From positions 96,001 through 160,000 of IMG/VR virus record IMGVR_UViG_3300028591_000081: a DNA stretch of 64,000 nucleotides. One strand, 5' to 3'. The position numbers and the translations under genes were made by a program. Of the stretch, positions 9,104-45,299 are shown one piece after another (position 1 is the stretch's first letter; each line of letters starts with the position of its first letter). This DNA is from a virus (lineage: Duplodnaviria; Caudoviricetes). The notes beneath the pieces were generated by a model. That model saw only the letters and a program-made list of their open reading frames with translations, had not been told where the DNA came from and made no database searches.

Positions 9104-9759
9104 TGCAAATTTCTTCGTCAACAAAGGCTGGATACCCACGCATTTATGTTGGTGGTGCAGTAGACAGCCTACTTCGGTACCTATCGATCCATCATAAGGA
9201 TATTCTGGCGTCCATGCACACCATAGGATTTGTCGCGGATTCTTCAGAAGACGCCGTCCCGGATGCTTCTATCAGTACGGATTCTGGTACTGAGGAGGTC
9301 GCTATGGTGTCTTCCCCTGTCAAAGAGTTGAGGGAGATTATCGAGTATTACAATAACATCGACTGGGATTTGAATCGACCCATCGTTATAAATCTCTCCA
9401 TGATCGTTGACCCAGAGGTGTCGTTCAAAGTTCAGTCCATGCTTCTGAAGTTCCTTGAAGAGACCTCTCATCGCGTAATCCTGCTGTCCATTGCAGATGA
9501 CCTTATGTCTACGATATTGTCCAGAGCCTCCTTGGTGTGTAAGATACCTGTTGTAGCAGATTACTCATTTGGAAAGGCGTGGGAAGCCAGAACCGACATG
9601 GCCGTAGATTTCAACGGAATCAGGCTACCATTGCCGATCTACAAGACTGAGAGTTTGAAAAGGTCCGTGGAGATGGCAAGAGTTGACACGATGTGCCGGA
9701 TGCATCATCATGGCCGGGGGTTTAAGGAACGCATTGCGAAGATTTTGGAGAAAGCCTGA
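9103..9759 (+). CDS. Degenerate clamp-loader (Pol III delta'/RFC-like) subunit
   Basis: QSMLLKFLEE...VILLS...LMSTILSRA resembles ANALLKTLEE...LLPTIRSRC. Confidence 0.6.
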   Translation: MQISSSTKAGYPRIYVGGAVDSLLRYLSIHHKDILASMHTIGFVADSSEDAVPDASISTDSGTEEVAMVSSPVKELREIIEYYNNIDWDLNRPIVINLSMIVDPEVSFKVQSMLLKFLEETSHRVILLSIADDLMSTILSRASLVCKIPVVADYSFGKAWEARTDMAVDFNGIRLPLPIYKTESLKRSVEMARVDTMCRMHHHGRGFKERIAKILEKA

Positions 9760-10752: not shown

Positions 10753-11550
10753 ATGGCAACGATTGTGGATGTGCGTGATTACGATATGGGGATGCTGAAA
10801 AGGTTTCAGTTCTTTTACCCGAACACCGTGTGGATCAACCATTCCAGTGTCGAGATCTCTGAGATACGAGACAATGCGATTTACGAGGGGCAGGACATTC
10901 ATTTCCCAGTCTTGATTCTTCGGCGCACATCTTGTCCTGTACTGTACCGCGACAATAGTCCCTATTCTCAATACAAGATAGGCGACCGTCACACAGACGG
11001 GATGTCTCAAGCAGAAATCGTCGCTCGCGGGTTCCCTGACGACCTGACGCTGGTCAACTCTATTTATGAGCTGAAATATGACCTTGAGATCCTTTCCGCC
11101 AGTCGAGACAACTTTGATGAACTTGTGATCGAGGCGCAGGAGAATCTGATCCGCTTTCCGTTCCTGACCATTGATGCAGACGATAAGATTATCCAAGGCC
11201 AGTCGTCGCATTTGCTGATGGATACCTGTCAGGATAATTCCGATCTGGACAACTTCGGCGAGCATGTTCCCTTGTACCGTGCCACCATCGGAATGACGCT
11301 TCGTGGGTACATTTACCGCAAGTATCGTCGATTCAGTGTGGACGAGTTCCTGATGCATCTCAAAGTGAACTCAAACCTTCCAACTGATGAAGACCACGAC
11401 TACCGCATCCCTACGGTAAAGCACATCAACTCTTTGGTTCCAGAGAATATACGGAAGATTCTTGGGGATGTTCCACTCAAGAAAGAAATAGGCATCAACG
11501 AATGTCCATGTAAGGCCCTGTGCCCGGAACACGACGACGGAAAACCGTAA
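10753..11550 (+). CDS. Possible tail-completion/terminator (neck) protein
   Basis: FPVLILRR and YELKYDLEILS...DEL pattern; functional call weak. Confidence 0.45.
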   Translation: MATIVDVRDYDMGMLKRFQFFYPNTVWINHSSVEISEIRDNAIYEGQDIHFPVLILRRTSCPVLYRDNSPYSQYKIGDRHTDGMSQAEIVARGFPDDLTLVNSIYELKYDLEILSASRDNFDELVIEAQENLIRFPFLTIDADDKIIQGQSSHLLMDTCQDNSDLDNFGEHVPLYRATIGMTLRGYIYRKYRRFSVDEFLMHLKVNSNLPTDEDHDYRIPTVKHINSLVPENIRKILGDVPLKKEIGINECPCKALCPEHDDGKP

Positions 11551-11558
11551 TAGGTTTG

Positions 11559-11598
11559 TGGTGCTGATAACAGGTTTTGAAACCTTCTGTGGTAAGGT
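11559..11598 (+). promoter_or_regulatory. Phage promoter motif copy 3
   Basis: TGGTGCTGA, 22 nt, TGgTAAGGT. Confidence 0.75.
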
Positions 11599-11660
11599 TC
11601 CTTTTGTCATGGGTGTCGTGCTTCTAGGGCATCCACGACAAATCGTCATCTCCTGAGTTG

Positions 11661-11744
11661 CTAGAACGCTCTCTGACGACGTTTTCCGATTCACCCTGTG
11701 TAGTTACAGGGGTGTCCAAGAAAATCGCTCAGAGAGCGTTCTAG
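11661..11744. repeat. Long imperfect palindrome with 16-bp perfect outer arms
   Basis: ctagaacgctctctga ... tcagagagcgttctag; inner caccctgt/acaggggtg. Confidence 0.85.
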
Positions 11745-11791
11745 GGGCTTCTGTGACCAATTCTCTTTTGACCTTCCATTGGAGAGTTACC

Positions 11792-12199
11792 ATGTTTATC
11801 AAGTCCGACATTTGTGGTGCCGAAGAAGCTCAGACCGTTTCTGTATTCAACAGTCTGTTCCTCATTGAACGCGCAGAGAATGCAATGTTCAATGTTACGA
11901 AGTGTAAAGAAGGTTCTGACCACAACTTCATTGTCTATTCCTATACAGACCTTGGGCTGATCCTTATGTTGATCACTGTGACAGCTTCGGAAACGAAAAT
12001 CCTTGCCCGGTCGATTGCCCATGATCCACACAACTTGGGGAATAACAAAGACCTTGAAGAGGATGTTGGTCACGAGTATTGTCGGGTACCTTATGCGTCT
12101 GACTTGCCTATGGTTCCGATTTACAATGCGCTCAAGAGTATGTACAGCAAAATGAGTAAGAATCTCTCTGAGTTTGTGTATGGAGATATTCCCTTTTAA
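11792..12199 (+). CDS. Hypothetical protein
   Basis: ORF with GGAG RBS. Confidence 0.65.
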   Translation: MFIKSDICGAEEAQTVSVFNSLFLIERAENAMFNVTKCKEGSDHNFIVYSYTDLGLILMLITVTASETKILARSIAHDPHNLGNNKDLEEDVGHEYCRVPYASDLPMVPIYNALKSMYSKMSKNLSEFVYGDIPF

Positions 12200-13592: not shown

Positions 13593-14387
13593 ATGAGTTA
13601 CGATTTTGAATGGGATATCCTGAAGTCACGTGAAACTTGTCAGAAATTAGACCTGCTTGCGAAATACCCGACAGTGGTTCCTGTAAAAGTAACGGGTAAG
13701 ATGATCTTTTCTCAGAAGGATGTTCCCGAAGGTTATTCCTACTCTGGGTGCTGTGATCATCGTTCTGATGACACGCACTGCCTGTGTCGCCTGTACTCTA
13801 CCATAAAAAGTGTGCTGTTTGACGTGCGTGACTCCATGATCGACAAGTCTCTGAAACAGCATCTTCAAGCTCCGGCCTTTTTGTCGGTAGGTTCCTCCAC
13901 CAACACTCTTGATGTCTGCGTGGCCACATTCAACATTCAGAACCATCACTCCATGAAACTTCGTGTGATTCATAGCGTGCCTGTGGAGGCATACTCGATA
14001 GATCGTGATGTGTACGTTTCCGGCGACAACTTACGTTCCTGCTTTGAAGTACGGGACGCATACAATAGGGATGCCTCGTTTTTGTCGGACATTGAACGTG
14101 AGATGTCTGAGACGTTGGTAGAACGTCAGGCTGTGGAATCAATTTCACTCCTTGCCAGATTTGCTCTCGGAATGGATGGTAGAGACATGGATACCGACGT
14201 GATTAAAGAGTTTGCATCCTCTTTACGCTCTATCGCTAAAACCCTTGAGAACACGGCGCGTCGTATGGATGACTGTCTTTGCGAGGAATATCCGGAAGAG
14301 GAAGACAAGGATGACTACTGCGATGATTCTGAAGACTACTTCTATGAGGACGATGAAGCCTCGGATGGATGTGAGATGATCGGATAA
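13593..14387 (+). CDS. Hypothetical protein with highly acidic C-terminus
   Basis: GGAGG RBS; EEYPEEEDKDDYCDDSEDYFYEDDE tail. Confidence 0.7.
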   Translation: MSYDFEWDILKSRETCQKLDLLAKYPTVVPVKVTGKMIFSQKDVPEGYSYSGCCDHRSDDTHCLCRLYSTIKSVLFDVRDSMIDKSLKQHLQAPAFLSVGSSTNTLDVCVATFNIQNHHSMKLRVIHSVPVEAYSIDRDVYVSGDNLRSCFEVRDAYNRDASFLSDIEREMSETLVERQAVESISLLARFALGMDGRDMDTDVIKEFASSLRSIAKTLENTARRMDDCLCEEYPEEEDKDDYCDDSEDYFYEDDEASDGCEMIG

Positions 14388-20014: not shown

Positions 20015-21853
20015 TTAGAATCCGATGATGTATCCGTAGCGGTCAATCTGGTTGGCCACACGTTCCGCACTAATCATGTAATCATTCATCATCATTTCCA
20101 GATTCTTTTGGTCAATGACGGTCTTGCCTGTACCATCCGGCACAGCCTGTCCTACATCAAACACGTAATCTTCTGCCCGCATTACGTCCACGGAGGCCGC
20201 GTCTTTCATGTGGTAAATGGCTATCTGCTTTACGATAAAGGAACGGTCAACTTCTGGGAACTTAGAGATGGCAAAAGGATTCAGGTTTACTCTGAGAAGA
20301 ACGTAGGTAGGGAACATGTCATCGGTAGCAAGACGCCAGAAACGACCTCCATACAGGAAAGTATCTGCCGCCTCTTTCTCGGCTTCACAGACAAGTTCTG
20401 CTGTACCATGGACAAACGTCAGGAAGTTGAAGGCATTATACCATCCCGAGAGTATCCATCGGTGTCTGCGACGCTGGAATGCCGCGTATTTTTCTTTGTC
20501 TGTAATCAGGGGTACCGTTACCTCATCGGAGTAAGTGTATCCTTCCGAGGTGACAGCGCGAGTGTTGTAGTACACACCGTCGTTGACAAACAGGGGTTTG
20601 TTGTAGTCTTCGTCAGTAGAGTTCAAGTCGTCGAGGTATGCCACCGGGAATATGGGATAGTTACGATCCCGCTCCATATCGGTCAAAGGCATTCCATAAG
20701 GTTTGTTGTCGGCAGTGTATCCGTTCAGATACCGTGCGGCATCTCTGTCTTCATACATGTCGCTGTATTCGGTAGAGATAGGCTTACTTCCTGTTCCTAC
20801 GGTCGAACCACTGCTCTCGTCTTCCGTTGTGGGACGATTTCTTCTGTCGTTGGAACGATCTCGTACATAATCGGTCAAAACTAGGAAAGGCTGAGCTTTC
20901 ATCTCATGGTATCGCGCAGTCCTTCTGGCCAGCAACTCGGCTTCTGACCAATCTGTCCATACCGGGTCATAAATAGGCAATCCGTTACTGTCTAAGACAA
21001 CATTTCCAAACTCATCCAGTCTTGCCTCCGTTTTCTGCGTACCATCCGGATTGAGTACAGGTTTCCTGCTGTCCGGCTTCTCACTCAGACGCTGGTTGGT
21101 GTTTTCAGCTACCGTAGCAAACTGAATAAGAGAATGGCGGAGTCCTGCAAGATCAAAACACAATCCCTTTTCTGTATCGTCATCTTCTGACTTACCAGCC
21201 GAACGCGTGGCATAGTATTCAGTACTGTCCCCTTCTGCTTTTCCGTTGGTGAGGAAATAATCGCGAAATACCATGGCATAGGCATTTGGATCGTACTGAT
21301 CATGGTAGGCTTTCAGAATTTGACGCGCCGAGATCCTTGTATCCGATGATACAAATAGAGGGTCTCGGTCATTGTCATAGGCAAAGTACAGTTCGGCCTT
21401 CCCTTCAGGATTCAACTGCATACAGAGAGGGTGTTCAGACAGGTACTTCACCATAGGTTCGGTACGCGTGGTTGTCAGGAGCATCATCACAGGCAGGGTG
21501 TACTCGAAGGTCGGAATGTCGTGCCAGTCACCGTCCTCTGTACCCCAAGTTACTACTGGAGATTCAATCATGCATCCACATCCACAAGGACACGGTCTGT
21601 ATTTCGGATTGGTACTCCCAGAAGGGGGGATAGGCTCGATACCCGGGGTGTCACTGCCGTCGGAAGAGTCAGAGTTCGGATTGTTCTGGTTACTGAGCTG
21701 GCGGCTATTGCACGGAGGTGCTTTGGGCATGTTCTCAGTAGTCCACTGATGTCCACCAGCTCCAAAAGCAAACCAAACCCCGCCGCCACTGTTGCAGAAT
21801 TTCTTGAACTCGCGTGCTTTGACATAACGTCCATAGTCTGTAAAGATACCCAT
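20015..21853 (-). CDS. Baseplate wedge protein (T4 gp8-like termini, large insertion)
   Basis: N-terminal GRYVKA...WFAFG; C-terminal VKQIAIY...ERVANQIDRYGYIIGF. Confidence 0.55.
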   Translation of the reverse strand: MGIFTDYGRYVKAREFKKFCNSGGGVWFAFGAGGHQWTTENMPKAPPCNSRQLSNQNNPNSDSSDGSDTPGIEPIPPSGSTNPKYRPCPCGCGCMIESPVVTWGTEDGDWHDIPTFEYTLPVMMLLTTTRTEPMVKYLSEHPLCMQLNPEGKAELYFAYDNDRDPLFVSSDTRISARQILKAYHDQYDPNAYAMVFRDYFLTNGKAEGDSTEYYATRSAGKSEDDDTEKGLCFDLAGLRHSLIQFATVAENTNQRLSEKPDSRKPVLNPDGTQKTEARLDEFGNVVLDSNGLPIYDPVWTDWSEAELLARRTARYHEMKAQPFLVLTDYVRDRSNDRRNRPTTEDESSGSTVGTGSKPISTEYSDMYEDRDAARYLNGYTADNKPYGMPLTDMERDRNYPIFPVAYLDDLNSTDEDYNKPLFVNDGVYYNTRAVTSEGYTYSDEVTVPLITDKEKYAAFQRRRHRWILSGWYNAFNFLTFVHGTAELVCEAEKEAADTFLYGGRFWRLATDDMFPTYVLLRVNLNPFAISKFPEVDRSFIVKQIAIYHMKDAASVDVMRAEDYVFDVGQAVPDGTGKTVIDQKNLEMMMNDYMISAERVANQIDRYGYIIGF

Positions 21854-21941
21854 ACCGTTCTCCTTAGGTCAACCACCTTTGTACTATCGAAACCACCGTA
21901 ACTACGGCATTTAGTGTGATATTGACGTATGGAGATGGGCA

Positions 21942-22166
21942 ATGAGCGGAAAACAAAAAGAGGAAGGAATCCTGATGAACGGCACCGTTTTGGAAGCGTT
22001 ACGAAACGCCATGTTCAGAGTAAAGATCGAAACTGGTCAGGAAGTTCTGGCCCACGTGTCTGGGAAGATTCGAAAGTTCTTTATCAGGATACTCCCCGGC
22101 GACACCGTGACCGTAGAGCTGTCCCCTTACGATCTGACTCGTGGCCGTATCATCCATCGTAAGTGA
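21942..22166 (+). CDS. infA: Translation initiation factor IF-1
   Basis: GTVLEAL.NAMFRV...[32 protein letters not shown], a near-complete IF-1 signature. Confidence 0.97.
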
Positions 22167-22173
22167 TCTGATG

Positions 22174-22213
22174 TGGTGCTGGGTCTCGGAGAACCTAAAT
22201 TTCGTGCTATAAA
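22174..22213 (+). promoter_or_regulatory. Phage promoter motif copy 5
   Basis: TGGTGCTGG, 22 nt, TGcTATAAA. Confidence 0.75.
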
Positions 22214-22310
22214 CAAGGCATGAGCAGACAATGAATCTGTTCAGTAGTCTTGGAGGAAGCGTAAGAACCAGACGGATACACATGCATCCTTGGAACAAAG
22301 GAGAGGGTTT

Positions 22311-22502
22311 ATGAAAGAGAAACGTAAGGTAAATGTTCGGGAAGCCTGCAAACGATATTCGAAGCGAGTTGAGGCGAAACGTCGTAAGATGGAGAGTGAG
22401 AACGACATTGATCAGATGATGCTTCAAATCATGCAGGATGCGATGCCTAATTCTGATGTAGAGATTCGTCCTGACGGCTCTATGGAAATCACTCAGGAGT
22501 AA
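22311..22502 (+). CDS. Small hypothetical protein (basic N-terminus, acidic C-terminus)
   Basis: AAGGAG RBS, 63 aa. Confidence 0.6.
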   Translation: MKEKRKVNVREACKRYSKRVEAKRRKMESENDIDQMMLQIMQDAMPNSDVEIRPDGSMEITQE

Positions 22503-22553: not shown

Positions 22554-23357
22554 GTGTCTACGATCAAACCTCTCGTCAAGTGGTCTGGTAGTAAGCGTTC
22601 TCAGGCCGACCGACTGGCTTCATTTATTCCGTCCTTTCGACGTTATTACGAGCCTTTTGTCGGCGGTGGATCTATGCTTTACCGCGTCGGTCCAGAGGAG
22701 GCCGTGGTCGGAGATTCCTGCAAACCATTGATTGATCTGTGGGAGGCCATAAAGACTTTTCCAAATCGTCTGGCTTCAGAATACAGGTCTCTGTGGGAAG
22801 CGTTGCAAAAGGACAATGACTTTTATTACATAGTTCGAGAGCGGTTTAATGCGTACCAAGAACCTTGGGACTTTCTGTTTCTCACTAGAACGTGCATGAA
22901 CGGGCTGATCCGGTTCAATAGGGAAGGTAAGTTCAACACGTCCTTTCATATAGGAAGGCCCGGCATCCATCCAGATACCATGGACGCCATTATTCTCGAT
23001 TGGCATCAGAAACTTCACGGCGTGGTCTTCGTCAGTGGGGATTTCACGGAAACCTTGAGAACCGTAACTGCCGAAGACTTCGTGTACCTCGACCCACCAT
23101 ACTTCCACACCAAGGGCATGTATGGAGAAACATTCGAATCTTCGCGCCTCTGGGAATGTCTTGAACACCTGAACCGAACAGGGGTTCGGTGGATGCTATC
23201 TTATGATGGAAAGTCCGGCGATGGAGACCATACCGTGGATATCCCGCAAAACCTGTACAGACGGCATGAGTATATCCAGTCCGGGATTTCCTCATTCAAG
23301 AGGATCGTGAAGAAGGAGAAGGCTATGGTCTACGAATCGTTATACCTCAACTTCTAG
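22554..23357 (+). CDS. Dam-family (D12 class) DNA adenine methyltransferase
   Basis: KWSGSKR, EPFVGGGS, NGLIRFN..G.FN, YLDPPY. Confidence 0.92.
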   Translation: MSTIKPLVKWSGSKRSQADRLASFIPSFRRYYEPFVGGGSMLYRVGPEEAVVGDSCKPLIDLWEAIKTFPNRLASEYRSLWEALQKDNDFYYIVRERFNAYQEPWDFLFLTRTCMNGLIRFNREGKFNTSFHIGRPGIHPDTMDAIILDWHQKLHGVVFVSGDFTETLRTVTAEDFVYLDPPYFHTKGMYGETFESSRLWECLEHLNRTGVRWMLSYDGKSGDGDHTVDIPQNLYRRHEYIQSGISSFKRIVKKEKAMVYESLYLNF

Positions 23358-25965: not shown

Positions 25966-26006
25966 TGGTGCTGAATCCTTCACCTATGAAATTTGTGTGG
26001 TATGAA
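25966..26006 (+). promoter_or_regulatory. Phage promoter motif copy 7
   Basis: TGGTGCTGA, 23 nt, TGgTATGAA. Confidence 0.75.
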
Positions 26007-27677: not shown

Positions 27678-27750
27678 CCTGAAGCCCTTGCATATATGCA
27701 GGATGATCCTGTGTTCGAACTGTTCTTTGAGTTCCTGTGTCATATAGAAT

Positions 27751-27932
27751 TTGCCCGGCAGAGCATGTCGGGATTATGAGGTGGAGACAGGTTTGGTCAA
27801 TAGACGCTAATAACGGTGAGATCTTTTCTGTCGATGAAACCTTACTCCGTGAAACAGGCTGGAGGATTCATAAGTCATCAAATTTTCGATTCTGGTGATG
27901 AAGAATTGGCCAGCCTTGTGGGAAGGCTTGGT
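27751..27932 (+). ncRNA. omegaRNA/tracrRNA-like guide scaffold, copy A (no adjacent nuclease)
   Basis: Closely similar to 32306-32498; stem differences preserve pairing; ends in anti-repeat tgtgggaagg. Confidence 0.8.
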
Positions 27933-28126
27933 GTCCTCCCCACATATACTGAGATGCTACTACGTGGAGTGGATGAGGTTTGCGATCTCAAGTCCTACCC
28001 ACATATACGGAGATGCTACTAGGTCGTGTGTATGAGGTCTGCGATCTCAATCTTCCCCCCATATACGGAGATGCTACCCCCCTGACTCAAACGTCGGAGT
28101 CCTCCCCCCATATACGGAGATGCTAC
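27933..28126 (+). CRISPR. Mini CRISPR array A: four 28-bp repeats, spacers of 31, 30 and 21 bp
   Basis: Repeats at 27933-27960, 27992-28019, 28050-28077 and 28099-28126; consensus GTCCTCCCC(A/C)CATATACGGAGATGCTAC, type I-E-like. Confidence 0.85.
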
Positions 28127-30800: not shown

Positions 30801-31227
30801 CACTCAAGAAATTGCCACCCATATCGGTTTTATGTTGGATCGTTTTGCATCTCGCTTCGTAGAAAAGTTGCCTACGACTCTTACGCGTGAGAATACTCCA
30901 TTATTTCTAAGAGCTTTGGAGGACATCGAAACCCTTACCAAAGCTGGATATGAAACGGCCAAGAAGGCTGGAGACGCTGTTCTGGACTGCGGGGCCGAAC
31001 GTATGCTAGTTCCTTTTCACCATCTCACATGGGAATGGTGCAATGCCTATACCAGTGACTTCACATGGGAAGCCTTCTTGGATGCGATGATTGAATCTGG
31101 CGACACTACGGTGAGGGTTCAGAACAAAACCTTTGAGGAATGTGGAGATTCTTCAAAGTGCATACGGATATTCTTTGGGGATGGTTCGAGAGACAACGCG
31201 TGTGCCGAATATGGCTTTCCTGATTGA
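30790..31227 (+). CDS. Hypothetical protein
   Basis: GGAG RBS; overlaps upstream gene. Confidence 0.65.
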   Translation: MESNTQEIATHIGFMLDRFASRFVEKLPTTLTRENTPLFLRALEDIETLTKAGYETAKKAGDAVLDCGAERMLVPFHHLTWEWCNAYTSDFTWEAFLDAMIESGDTTVRVQNKTFEECGDSSKCIRIFFGDGSRDNACAEYGFPD

Positions 31228-31234
31228 GGTGGGT

Positions 31235-31582
31235 ATGTCGAATTTACCGAATATCCTAGACATTATGTCATGGGATACTCATCAAGCCTTGGAACATGGA
31301 CGTGGTTATCAAGCTGGCCGTGAAGACGTATTCCACAGCAGGATACCCATGACATTTACAAGGGAACATTCCAGAACTTTTCGTCTTGGGTACTGTCAAG
31401 GATGGGCGGAAGAAAAGACAAGCACTCTCATGGACAGACTACCAAAGATGATTTGCGGGCAGAGTACCGCTTATGCTAGTGCCTTGGCCGAGTCTGAGTT
31501 TGTCAAGATTTGGGAAGAAACCTCTAAACTTGCAGAATGTTCGGACGATGAGGTCACGGACTACGAGGTCACGGACTACTGA
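31235..31582 (+). CDS. Hypothetical protein; C-terminal 15-bp tandem duplication (EVTDY x2)
   Basis: GAGG RBS; gaggtcacggactac occurs twice at 31550-31579. Confidence 0.65.
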   Translation: MSNLPNILDIMSWDTHQALEHGRGYQAGREDVFHSRIPMTFTREHSRTFRLGYCQGWAEEKTSTLMDRLPKMICGQSTAYASALAESEFVKIWEETSKLAECSDDEVTDYEVTDY

Positions 31583-32260: not shown

Positions 32261-32301
32261 TGGTGCTGATGTCCATTCTTTAGTTTCGTTCATGCTATAT
32301 A
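32261..32301 (+). promoter_or_regulatory. Phage promoter motif copy 9, positioned to drive the scaffold-array-nuclease unit
   Basis: TGGTGCTGA, 23 nt, TGcTATATA; predicted start ~32307 coincides with the 5' end of the scaffold. Confidence 0.8.
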
Positions 32302-32305
32302 GAAG

Positions 32306-32498
32306 TTGCCCGGCAGAGCATGTCGGGATTATGAGGTGGAGACGGATTTGATCAAGCGCATATTATGATTCATAGTATGATGCAAGATCATTTCTGTCGA
32401 TGAAACCTTACCCTGTGAAACAGGCTGGAGGATTCAAAAGTCATCAAATTTCTATTCTGGTGACGAAGAATTTGGCCAGCCTTGTGGGAATGCTTGGT
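32306..32498 (+). ncRNA. omegaRNA/tracrRNA-like guide scaffold, copy B
   Basis: Stems cccggca/tgtcggg, tgaggt/acctta, gacgga/tctgtc, tgatc/gatca, aggctgg/ccagcct, gtcatca/tggtgac; anti-repeat tgtgggaa. Confidence 0.82.
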
Positions 32499-32590
32499 AT
32501 CTTTCCCACATATACGGGGATGCTACCCAGAAAATGCGACCACTCTGGGCCGTCTATCCGTGGTCTACCCACATATTATGTGGATGCTAC
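32499..32590 (+). CRISPR. Mini CRISPR array B: repeat, 35-bp spacer, degenerate repeat
   Basis: atctttcccacatatacggggatgctac (32499-32526); ggtctacccacatattatgtggatgctac (32562-32590). Confidence 0.75.
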
Positions 32591-32607
32591 GTAAAAGGGA
32601 AAATAAG

Positions 32608-43839: not shown

Positions 43840-43924
43840 GGTCAGGTGCGTCGAATGGCTGAAGACAGCGGACTGTAAATCCGTGACATAAGAAACGTTG
43901 GAGGTTCGAGTCCTCCCCTGACCA
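43840..43924 (+). tRNA. tRNA-Tyr(GTA)
   Basis: Acceptor ggtcagg/cctgacc; anticodon arm gcgga-ctGTAaa-tccgt; T-arm ggagg-ttcgagt-cctcc; long variable arm. Confidence 0.9.
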
Positions 43925-43927
43925 TGA

Positions 43928-44068
43928 CAAGTCATCGCTACGAAGAGCGAGTTGTGAGAGTAAAGACTGAAACGATCTAGTAAGTGTACATAGCTAGAGA
44001 GTGGAGGGATTAGGGTAGCAAACGTAGAGCCTGAAAAAGCCCTAACGTATGGTAATGGGGATGACTTG
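43928..44068 (+). ncRNA. Unidentified structured RNA within the tRNA cluster
   Basis: Closing stem caagtcatc/gatgacttg; internal ctag/ctag and ttaggg/ccctaa stems. Confidence 0.5.
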
Positions 44069-44073
44069 TTATT

Positions 44074-44136
44074 GGCGGTGTAGCTCAGTAGTTTAGAGCG
44101 CATTCGAGGTCGTTGGTGCAAATCCAATCACCGCCT
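44074..44136 (+). ncRNA. tRNA-like RNA lacking the anticodon arm
   Basis: Acceptor ggcggtg/caccgcc, D-arm gctc/gagc, T-arm gttgg-tgcaaat-ccaat; only gcattcgaggtc lies between D and T arms. Confidence 0.75.
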
Positions 44137-44141
44137 TTTTT

Positions 44142-44230
44142 GCCATGTCCGTCTGTTAGGTGTTGCAGACGCTCACAGGAATGGGTAGCTCCTCTGTTGA
44201 GAGAATCAGGTTCGAGTCCTGAACATGGCA
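44142..44230 (+). ncRNA. tRNA-like RNA with non-canonical anticodon region
   Basis: Acceptor gccatgt/acatggc, D-arm gtctg/cagac, T-arm tcagg-ttcgagt-cctga; no standard 5-bp stem with 7-nt loop. Confidence 0.65.
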
Positions 44231-44383
44231 TTTCTCTGGTACGGCAGAGAGACGTTGCGTGGAAGGCGAGCATCGAGAATTCTCGCTTCGGGCAGTCTGG
44301 CCATTCGTGGAACTTGGATCCACTACGATTGGTCGCAGGTCTGTATCAAAGCGTGAGGTGCCGTAATACTTCATGCTTTTTTT

Positions 44384-44472
44384 GCGGGTGTGCAGAAATC
44401 GGCAAACTGCGCGGTCTCAAAAACCGTCGGTGGGTAAAGCCCCACTTGTGAGTTCGAGTCTCACCACCCGCA
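44384..44472 (+). tRNA. tRNA-Leu(CAA)
   Basis: Acceptor gcgggtg/cacccgc; anticodon arm gcggt-ctCAAaa-accgt; long variable arm. Confidence 0.9.
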
Positions 44473-44475
44473 TTT

Positions 44476-44559
44476 GCCAGCGTGACGGAATTGGTAGACG
44501 TGGCCGCCTCAGAAGCGGTTGTCCTTGTGACGTTGATGGTTCGAGTCCATCCGCTGGCA
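44476..44559 (+). tRNA. tRNA-Leu(CAG)
   Basis: Acceptor gccagcg/cgctggc; anticodon arm gccgc-ctCAGaa-gcggt; T-arm gatgg-ttcgagt-ccatc. Confidence 0.92.
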
Positions 44560-44582
44560 TTTCTTAACTGACCTTATTCTGC

Positions 44583-45100: not shown

Positions 45101-45194
45101 AGGCGATTTTTGACAACTCTACCGATGTTTGTCTTTGCATGGACAACCACCACATACATGGAAAGATGTCACTTAGGCACGCCTGTGTCACGAT

Positions 45195-45296
45195 TTAGAC
45201 GATCTTAGACGAAGTTTAGACATTGGAGAGGAGCGAAACCGCGTCATTCCTCACTCTTACCGAACACAATTTAGACGCGCTTTAGACGAGTTAGAC
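45195..45296 (+). repeat. Six helically phased TTAGAC direct repeats in two groups of three
   Basis: Copies start at 45195, 45205, 45216, 45271, 45282 and 45291. Confidence 0.8.
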
Positions 45297-45299
45297 GAC

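Follow-up and report, generated by a model that had tools for sequence, protein, structure and literature searches.

Putative stand-alone guide cassette for a TnpB-derived nuclease in a gut phage genome

The window analysed here, a stretch of 64,000 nucleotides (positions 96,001 to 160,000 of IMG/VR record IMGVR_UViG_3300028591_000081), belongs to a 227.6-kb gut phage genome that is 96% complete, and the sequencing run containing the entire window is a sheep gut metagenome. On its plus strand lies a short element, cassette A, in which a tracrRNA-like scaffold (27742..27932) is fused directly to the first of four 28-bp repeats starting at 27933, 27992, 28050 and 28099, with periods of 59, 58 and 49 bp. 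Repeat A1 (27933..27960) is followed by the 31-nt spacer A1 (27961..27991), repeat A2 (27992..28019) by the 30-nt spacer A2 (28020..28049), and repeat A3 (28050..28077) by the 21-nt trailer spacer A3 (28078..28098); repeat A4 (28099..28126) abuts the start of the right-hand neighbour, a 5'-3' exonuclease gene, and the flank beyond it could serve as a terminal guide. The repeats differ among themselves by 2-4 nt. To the left, the neighbouring gene encodes a 370-aa unnamed protein with weak Bro-N/antirepressor-like leads. The arrangement of four 28-bp repeats with spacers of 31, 30 and 21 nt between two unrelated genes, put forward in the original prediction from the sequence alone, is right in its coordinates and sizes. 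The left boundary of the cassette probably lies at 27723..27730, on a TCTTT[G/A] motif that occurs 54-82 nt 5' of the scaffold in 11 of 12 family scaffolds, and an empty allele implied by the exonuclease variants P0123 and P0135, discussed below, places the boundary at the same point. No effector gene lies inside cassette A; the family effector, P0001, is encoded elsewhere in the same genome, 4.5 kb away, and a search of the 227.6-kb genome for cas1 returned none. Among its other genes, the phage encodes translation initiation factor IF-1 (21942-22166) and a Dam-type methyltransferase (22554-23357) of a family seen in orthologous loci, and it carries a tRNA cluster at 43840-44560.

The related cassette B (32297..32591, plus strand) comprises a scaffold, a repeat at 32499-32526, a 35-nt spacer and a degenerate second repeat with a period of 63 bp; it is preceded by a promoter-like box with a -10 element (32261..32301, plus strand) and followed by the gene for P0001 (32608..34275, plus strand). 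Positions 27751-27932 of cassette A are 87% identical to 32306-32498 (181 of 209 aligned positions), with exact identity over the 38 nt counted from 27751 and 32306, and the homology begins about 9 nt before these points, at 27742 and 32297. The 3' 115 nt of the two scaffolds are 92% identical (blastn E 1e-35), and the differences are concentrated in a single apical hairpin, including an 11-nt indel. Cassette A is therefore a diverged copy of the kind originally described, with an identical first 38 nt and differences mainly in one apical hairpin. Scanning of the 96%-complete genome by blast and by a covariance model, the latter a check proposed alongside the original prediction, found exactly two cassettes, A and B, scaffold A scoring 130 bits as a training member of the model.

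P0001 is a TnpB-derived protein of 555 aa. It has about 25 homologs at 33-53% identity that keep the RuvC triad and the zinc ribbon, with D306, E438 and D516 of the former and the cysteines of the latter invariant in 25 homologs. The protein matches the model NF040570 at 145 bits, above the cut-off of 100, and its clade, with support of 100/100, is separate from ordinary IS605 TnpBs in a tree built without Cas12f. The predicted structure is best matched by TnpB (8h1j), then by AsCas12f and LaTranC, all at less than 20% identity. P0001 is the sole nuclease of its family in the phage genome; the two other TnpBs encoded there have IS605-type right ends that do not match the scaffold covariance model. 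No scaffold was detected 3' of the P0001 gene by covariance model or blast, and viral scans by protein returned generic TnpBs and nothing else.

The loci of ten other clade members were read, and since these are 21-kb loci the cassette counts of the relatives are lower bounds. An array lies directly downstream of the nuclease gene in all ten, although one is cut by an assembly gap and one is reduced to a single repeat, and a clear scaffold stands between gene and array in nine of the ten, with a weak scaffold match in the remaining locus, L135. The window is the exception in layout, as the cassette of P0001 lies upstream of its gene and nothing lies downstream. In L007 cassettes flank the gene on both sides, and in L090 repeats do so, indicating that extra cassettes recur in the family. 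Several further features of these loci were observed. A spacer of the upstream array in L007 (9870-9903) matches the family scaffold, its 5' part matching the upstream scaffold (compared at 9617-9630) and 24 nt matching the downstream one (compared at 11640-11674), with neither matched fully; it looks like a guide against the scaffold of a sister phage, or like self-targeting with escape in both copies. The downstream array of the same locus contains a partial second scaffold (3' half, 11858-11956), followed by a different repeat variant matched to that partial scaffold. L135 belongs to a sister subclade with long C-terminal tails, in which the scaffold may overlap the gene end (11421-11960; 18 bits, E 0.07), and its array has collapsed repeats, with a further, stray repeat near 11918. 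In L133 a solitary repeat that resembles type I-E, judged by eye, lies about 2 kb downstream of the array (13980-14050), and intergenic clusters of short TTTAGAC repeats occur both in the window (45194-45297) and in L135 (9660-9810), phages that are otherwise unlike.

The computed consensus fold of the scaffold contains two scaffold:repeat helices, a long-range helix whose anti-repeat at 27845..27851 (plus strand) pairs with repeat positions 15-21, and a proximal helix (helix 4) whose anti-repeat at 27917..27926 (plus strand) pairs with the 5' half of the repeat, and both covary. Across 11 scaffolds, two-sided changes are present in 18 of 23 pairs (11 in shuffles) and in six of the six pairs of the long-range helix, helix 2, while 94% of cells pair, a level reached by none of 500 shuffles and set against 31-51% in slid controls; these figures lean favourable because the structure was derived from the same alignment, though the gap to the controls is still large. 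Comparison of A with B leaves 53 pairs the same, 5 changed yet paired and 6 broken. Four of the six broken pairs fall in the variable hairpin arm and one is the substitution at 27950 in repeat A1, which weakens the long-range helix; a single pair, in the long-range helix, is changed on both sides (C-G in B, U-A in A), the four others being changed but still paired. Predicted binding to the A repeats is -9.6 to -16.4 kcal/mol for scaffold A versus -3.1 to -7.7 kcal/mol for scaffold B, with repeat A2 the best predicted partner of scaffold A at -16.4 kcal/mol. A search of Rfam with the scaffold gave no match. As read from sequence, the guide is split into a putative tracrRNA with an anti-repeat and a crRNA. 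Because scaffold and repeat co-evolve, an array would be expected to work only with its own scaffold, so that both move together, and the computed need of array A for scaffold A accounts for their joint travel.

These features place the system near several that have been described. TranC systems are transposon-CRISPR intermediates (Jin et al., 2025, via PMC13565253, 10.64898/2026.03.27.714800), one of which is known from a phage. They share with the present system a compact TnpB-derived nuclease with an intact RuvC, a tracrRNA with a short array, and no cas1 or cas2; P0001 is likewise a 555-aa TnpB-derived protein with an intact RuvC triad, and its family is stably associated with arrays. A sequence search of the PDB with P0001 places LaTranC next after TnpB (E 7e-31), and an Atlas row named LaTranC family reaches a TM of 0.62, which is taken as a lead. 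However, P0001 and LaTranC are 17% identical with a TM of 0.42, the repeats are 28 bp here versus 32-38 bp in the reports on clades 3, 9, 11 and 20, and the array is here upstream of the gene, with a second cassette without a gene. The P0001 system would work like TranC with a standalone guide gene, in a comparison where the published TranC clades are represented by LaTranC alone. Standalone omegaRNAs of IscB and TnpB OMEGA systems work in trans (PMC10691335) and resemble cassette A in being effector-free guide genes with an effector in the same genome; however, those are single scaffold-guide units from transposon ends, whereas cassette A is a true repeat-spacer array with polar turnover. P0001 differs from an IS200/IS605 TnpB in having no omegaRNA at the 3' end of its gene and in scoring 156 bits against NF038281 (cut-off 425). 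Cas12r of Thermus Lalka phages (10.64898/2026.04.20.719267) is also a phage TnpB-derived effector of similar size (564 aa), with I-E-like repeat and spacer lengths, a shared last spacer and a proposed host adaptation, but it uses crRNA only, with no tracrRNA, whereas a scaffold of about 190 nt that pairs with the repeat is conserved throughout the P0001 family. The gene-tracrRNA-array order of the relatives of P0001 recalls Cas12f1 (AsCas12f) and Cas12n, and the fold is similar to that of AsCas12f (TM about 0.5). However, P0001 matches no Cas12f model (the relative P0023 scores 31.5 against a cut-off of 450), its family forms its own clade among the compared proteins, a set with no Cas12f in the tree, and its gene carries no tracrRNA in the C-terminal tail as Cas12n does, although the sister subclade (P0023, L135) may encode a scaffold there, judging from the weak match in L135.

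Comparison among strains bears on the age of the two cassettes. In seven pig-gut loci, which represent roughly one lineage since they share one exonuclease sequence, the flanks are 90-92% identical to the window, and cassette A is in the same place but broken, with a miniature IS605 element inside the scaffold, a 1.2-kb gene inside the array and model scores of 38-55 bits. At site B these strains are without cassette B, its promoter and the nuclease, as seen within the 21-kb loci. In strain X3 cassette A and the promoter of B are kept, the latter to 32285, and one contig joins 32285 to 34285, skipping cassette B and the nuclease gene; no X3 nuclease was found at 80% identity or above, though A and a third cassette are present. 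In strain X2, A, B and the nuclease gene are all present. The pig, X3 and X2 data together make cassette A the older resident, while B plus the nuclease is variable and comes and goes, the reverse of the 'second copy' originally supposed. The proposal that the guide repertoire grows by copying whole cassettes agrees with the two-sided layout of L007 and the third site in X3, but at this locus A is the older copy and B plus the nuclease the variable one. Beside these changes, the IS605 element inserted in the pig scaffold (L143:8198-8545) measures 350 bp, is non-autonomous and shares 84-90% identity with each end of the TnpB element located at genome positions 20880-22343, and the gene inserted within pig array A (L143:8790-9940) encodes 327 aa of no known family and has its own TGGTGCTG box. 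A 48-bp segment between short direct TGA repeats (window 27680-27727) is missing in X3 and the pig strains, and the pig strains also have no counterpart of window 30844-31581, a stretch of about 740 bp that separates the amidoligase and thymidylate kinase genes and contains a 146-aa ORF.

These histories raise the possibility, which we regard as unlikely, that cassette A was left over from an older, lost nuclease and is drifting, and that the later-arriving B and nuclease use their own guide alone. Such a reading would account for A predating B and being broken in the pig strains, for the eroded state of its spacers and repeats, for spacers A1 and A2 as a possible duplication plus drift, and for the lack at A of the family gene that normally stands right before the scaffold. 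However, A is still 87% identical to B with its fold kept, and the pig copies are about 77% identical to A despite flanks of 90-92%; spacers at A turn over among close strains, and an apparent empty allele suggests that A arrived as a gene-free unit of 404 bp.

The spacers of the relatives follow a ruler, as 29 of 43 are exactly 33 nt, for a 61-bp period, and 34 of 43 are 32-34 nt. The 61-bp period is identical to that of the E. coli type I-E array, whose repeat has a modest likeness to the family repeat, similar in both orientations. No window spacer is 33 nt long, and given the ruler of the family, the window periods of 59, 58, 49 and 63 bp may be understood as erosion of old units; the spacers of the window look old and eroded, and this strain has no fresh spacer. 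At site A the first spacers differ among the window, X2 (whose sequence differs beyond 28019), X3 and the pig strains, while the trailer spacer is common to the window, X3 and the pig strains with 2-3 mismatches, the X3 unit being placed from contig coordinates. This pattern is that of ordinary polar growth, for which a host Cas1-Cas2 is the most likely agent, and host type I-E adaptation has been proposed for phage Cas12r (10.64898/2026.04.20.719267). The irregular periods had been taken to argue against recent ruler-based acquisition; for this strain 'not recent' stands, as its spacers are eroded, but the mechanism does not fall with it, given the 33-nt family spacers and the varying first spacers. 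As for targets, searches of GenBank phages, IMG/VR, the phage's own genome and the loci of relatives found no protospacer for any window spacer, spacer A1 among them, so that the search of phage databases proposed earlier brought no target, and spacers of the L009 array likewise found none among plasmids. Three GTDB matches to the core of A1 and A2 were rejected as targets, since they fit chance (an estimated one or so expected) and do not extend. Spacers A1 and A2 are homologous (25 of 30 identical), and translation of their reverse frames gives similar peptides. The idea that both were captured from a single protein-coding gene is attractive but unproven: a search for a protein matching the peptides found none, and duplication plus drift fits equally well because spacer A3 drifts as fast between strains.

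The 28+33 geometry and palindromic repeats resemble type I-E, and viral CRISPR mini-arrays that use host effectors are known (PMC11656645), so a host type I-E Cascade might be responsible for processing the repeats, with the scaffold incidental or a decoy. Such mini-arrays are, like cassette A, short viral arrays without adaptation genes, and probably act in virus-virus competition; however, their repeats are copies of the host's and their effector is that of the host, whereas the array of cassette A is joined to a scaffold that would serve an effector of the phage. We consider this host-directed reading very improbable, as the repeats covary with the scaffold, vary between phages and within one phage rather than copying one host repeat, and resemble the E. 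coli repeat modestly and to a similar degree in both orientations, and as a search of 401 genomes from a single phylum, probably not the host's, brought no match to a family repeat pattern.

Two sites bear on how cassettes move. In X3, one contig end leaves a single repeat and continues into sequence that matches window 45247-45276 (29/30), and a second passes from a novel flank into a scaffold, the flank starting with 11 nt that are unique in the genome to 45123-45133. This third X3 site is known only from loose ends, 30 nt long, on two contigs, and its simplest reading is that about 112 bp of the intergenic site C (45135..45246, plus strand) gave way to a scaffold with a single repeat. The window and 10 pig-strain loci have no cassette at this site; in the empty allele of the window and pig strains, TCA stands immediately 5' of the junction. 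A repeat-like stretch at 45144-45171 was considered as a relic repeat and rejected, since the pig allele loses the likeness. At site A, the exonuclease variants P0123 (16 contigs) and P0135 have an N-terminal extension that a repeat cannot encode, and ten of its residues match the translation of 27693-27722 with a score that just 2 of 455,178 positions in the genome attain, for a stretch chosen after looking. This extension points to an empty site-A allele that passes from 27722 through Glu-Ser into 28127, placing the left end of A at 27723 on the conserved motif. Cassette A is thus apparently absent in the P0123 and P0135 strains, which suggests the insertion of a gene-free unit of 404 bp; the empty allele may end in TCN, again allowing TCA before the junction, and from the two junctions TCA is a candidate PAM.

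The two insertion events, both from indirect data, suggest homing. In one form of this idea, cassette A would be a selfish, non-autonomous unit that spreads between phage strains by using the nuclease in trans, also from a co-infecting relative, its last repeat landing against a former target so that the flank becomes a guide against empty alleles. The X3 junction at 45247 with its upstream end at 45123-45133 and TCA before the junction fits such spread, as does the P0123/P0135 peptide that may end in TCN. Yet X3 is represented by loose contig ends, P0123 is known from protein, its Ser codon being a putative TCN, and its allele diverges from the flank of A after about 9 nt; moreover, the junctions delete 6 and 112 bp, giving no precise transposase signature, and there are just two events. 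As an account of cassette A this appears improbable, although it is compatible with the explanation favoured below. A broader and somewhat less doubtful, if still speculative, possibility is that the guide-only cassettes of this family act as homing elements, each generating a guide for itself. Once the nuclease had cut a rival phage, the cassette would recombine into the cut site, leaving its last repeat against the former protospacer and removing the PAM, for which TCA is the candidate. If true, one unit would merge CRISPR-style spacer capture with TnpB-style flank-derived guiding and spread in the phage population without a protein.

Hints of expression come from RNA libraries. In a sheep-gut RNA library one contig covers 27762-28022 with zero differences, and contigs over scaffold B from two studies both end at 32540, 14 nt into the spacer, while RNA run X24 covers B and not A. 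These are weak hints, since a contig reveals neither the strand nor the level of expression, the genes next to the cassettes have RNA cover as well, and the contigs might derive from carried-over DNA; nor is the missing cover of the nuclease gene in X7 and X24 taken as evidence. No promoter box of its own was found for cassette A on the plus strand, and it may be read through from a phage promoter-like TGGTGCTG box (25966..25973, plus strand) that lies 5' of the gene run containing it.

Taken together, the anatomy of the cassette, the covariation, the family link to the nuclease and the polymorphism among strains make it probable, in our view, that cassette A supplies P0001 in trans with working guides against competing DNA and gains its spacers through host adaptation. 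That cassette A would guide the 32608 nuclease was part of the original prediction and is the best-supported reading, on the grounds that P0001 is the sole family nuclease, that the fold of A is kept and that an RNA contig exists, while the loading itself is deduced. In this model cassette A would be a guide gene complete in itself, belonging to a TnpB-derived, TranC-like type V system of the phage. It would be transcribed as one unit, in which spacer A1 is served by a natural single guide, the tracrRNA-like scaffold fused to repeat 1, and repeats 2-4 may pair with additional copies of the scaffold. The A guides would load on the nuclease in trans, and the loaded nuclease would cut competing DNA, probably that of related phages. 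A host Cas1-Cas2 with a type I-E-like ruler of 33 nt may insert new spacers at the scaffold end of the array, where they would later erode through small deletions. The signs of age in A are that no spacer is 33 nt, that the repeats differ by 2-4 nt and that repeat 1 carries a helix-breaking change. Counted against the model are these signs of age, the lack of protospacers in the searches made, the X3 strain with two cassettes and no detected nuclease, RNA evidence that consists of contigs, the missing plus-strand promoter of A, and the single two-sided change between A and B.

That standalone guides act in trans is already known from OMEGA systems (PMC10691335); what is new is a 28+33 tracr-fused family and a strain-level record of insertion, spacer turnover and decay. 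The locus thus offers a strain-level view of a TnpB-to-Cas12 intermediate in which the guide locus has loosened from its gene, and in which the scaffold-array cassettes have a history of duplication, movement, spacer exchange and decay that is independent of the nuclease. The nuclease family is also a resource: its members are compact (about 500-590 aa), scaffold and repeat are naturally fused, the RNA fold is supported by covariation, and TCA is a candidate PAM. This phage species, of which hundreds of strains have been sequenced, makes it testable how arrays without cas1 and cas2 gain spacers and what role standalone guide genes play.
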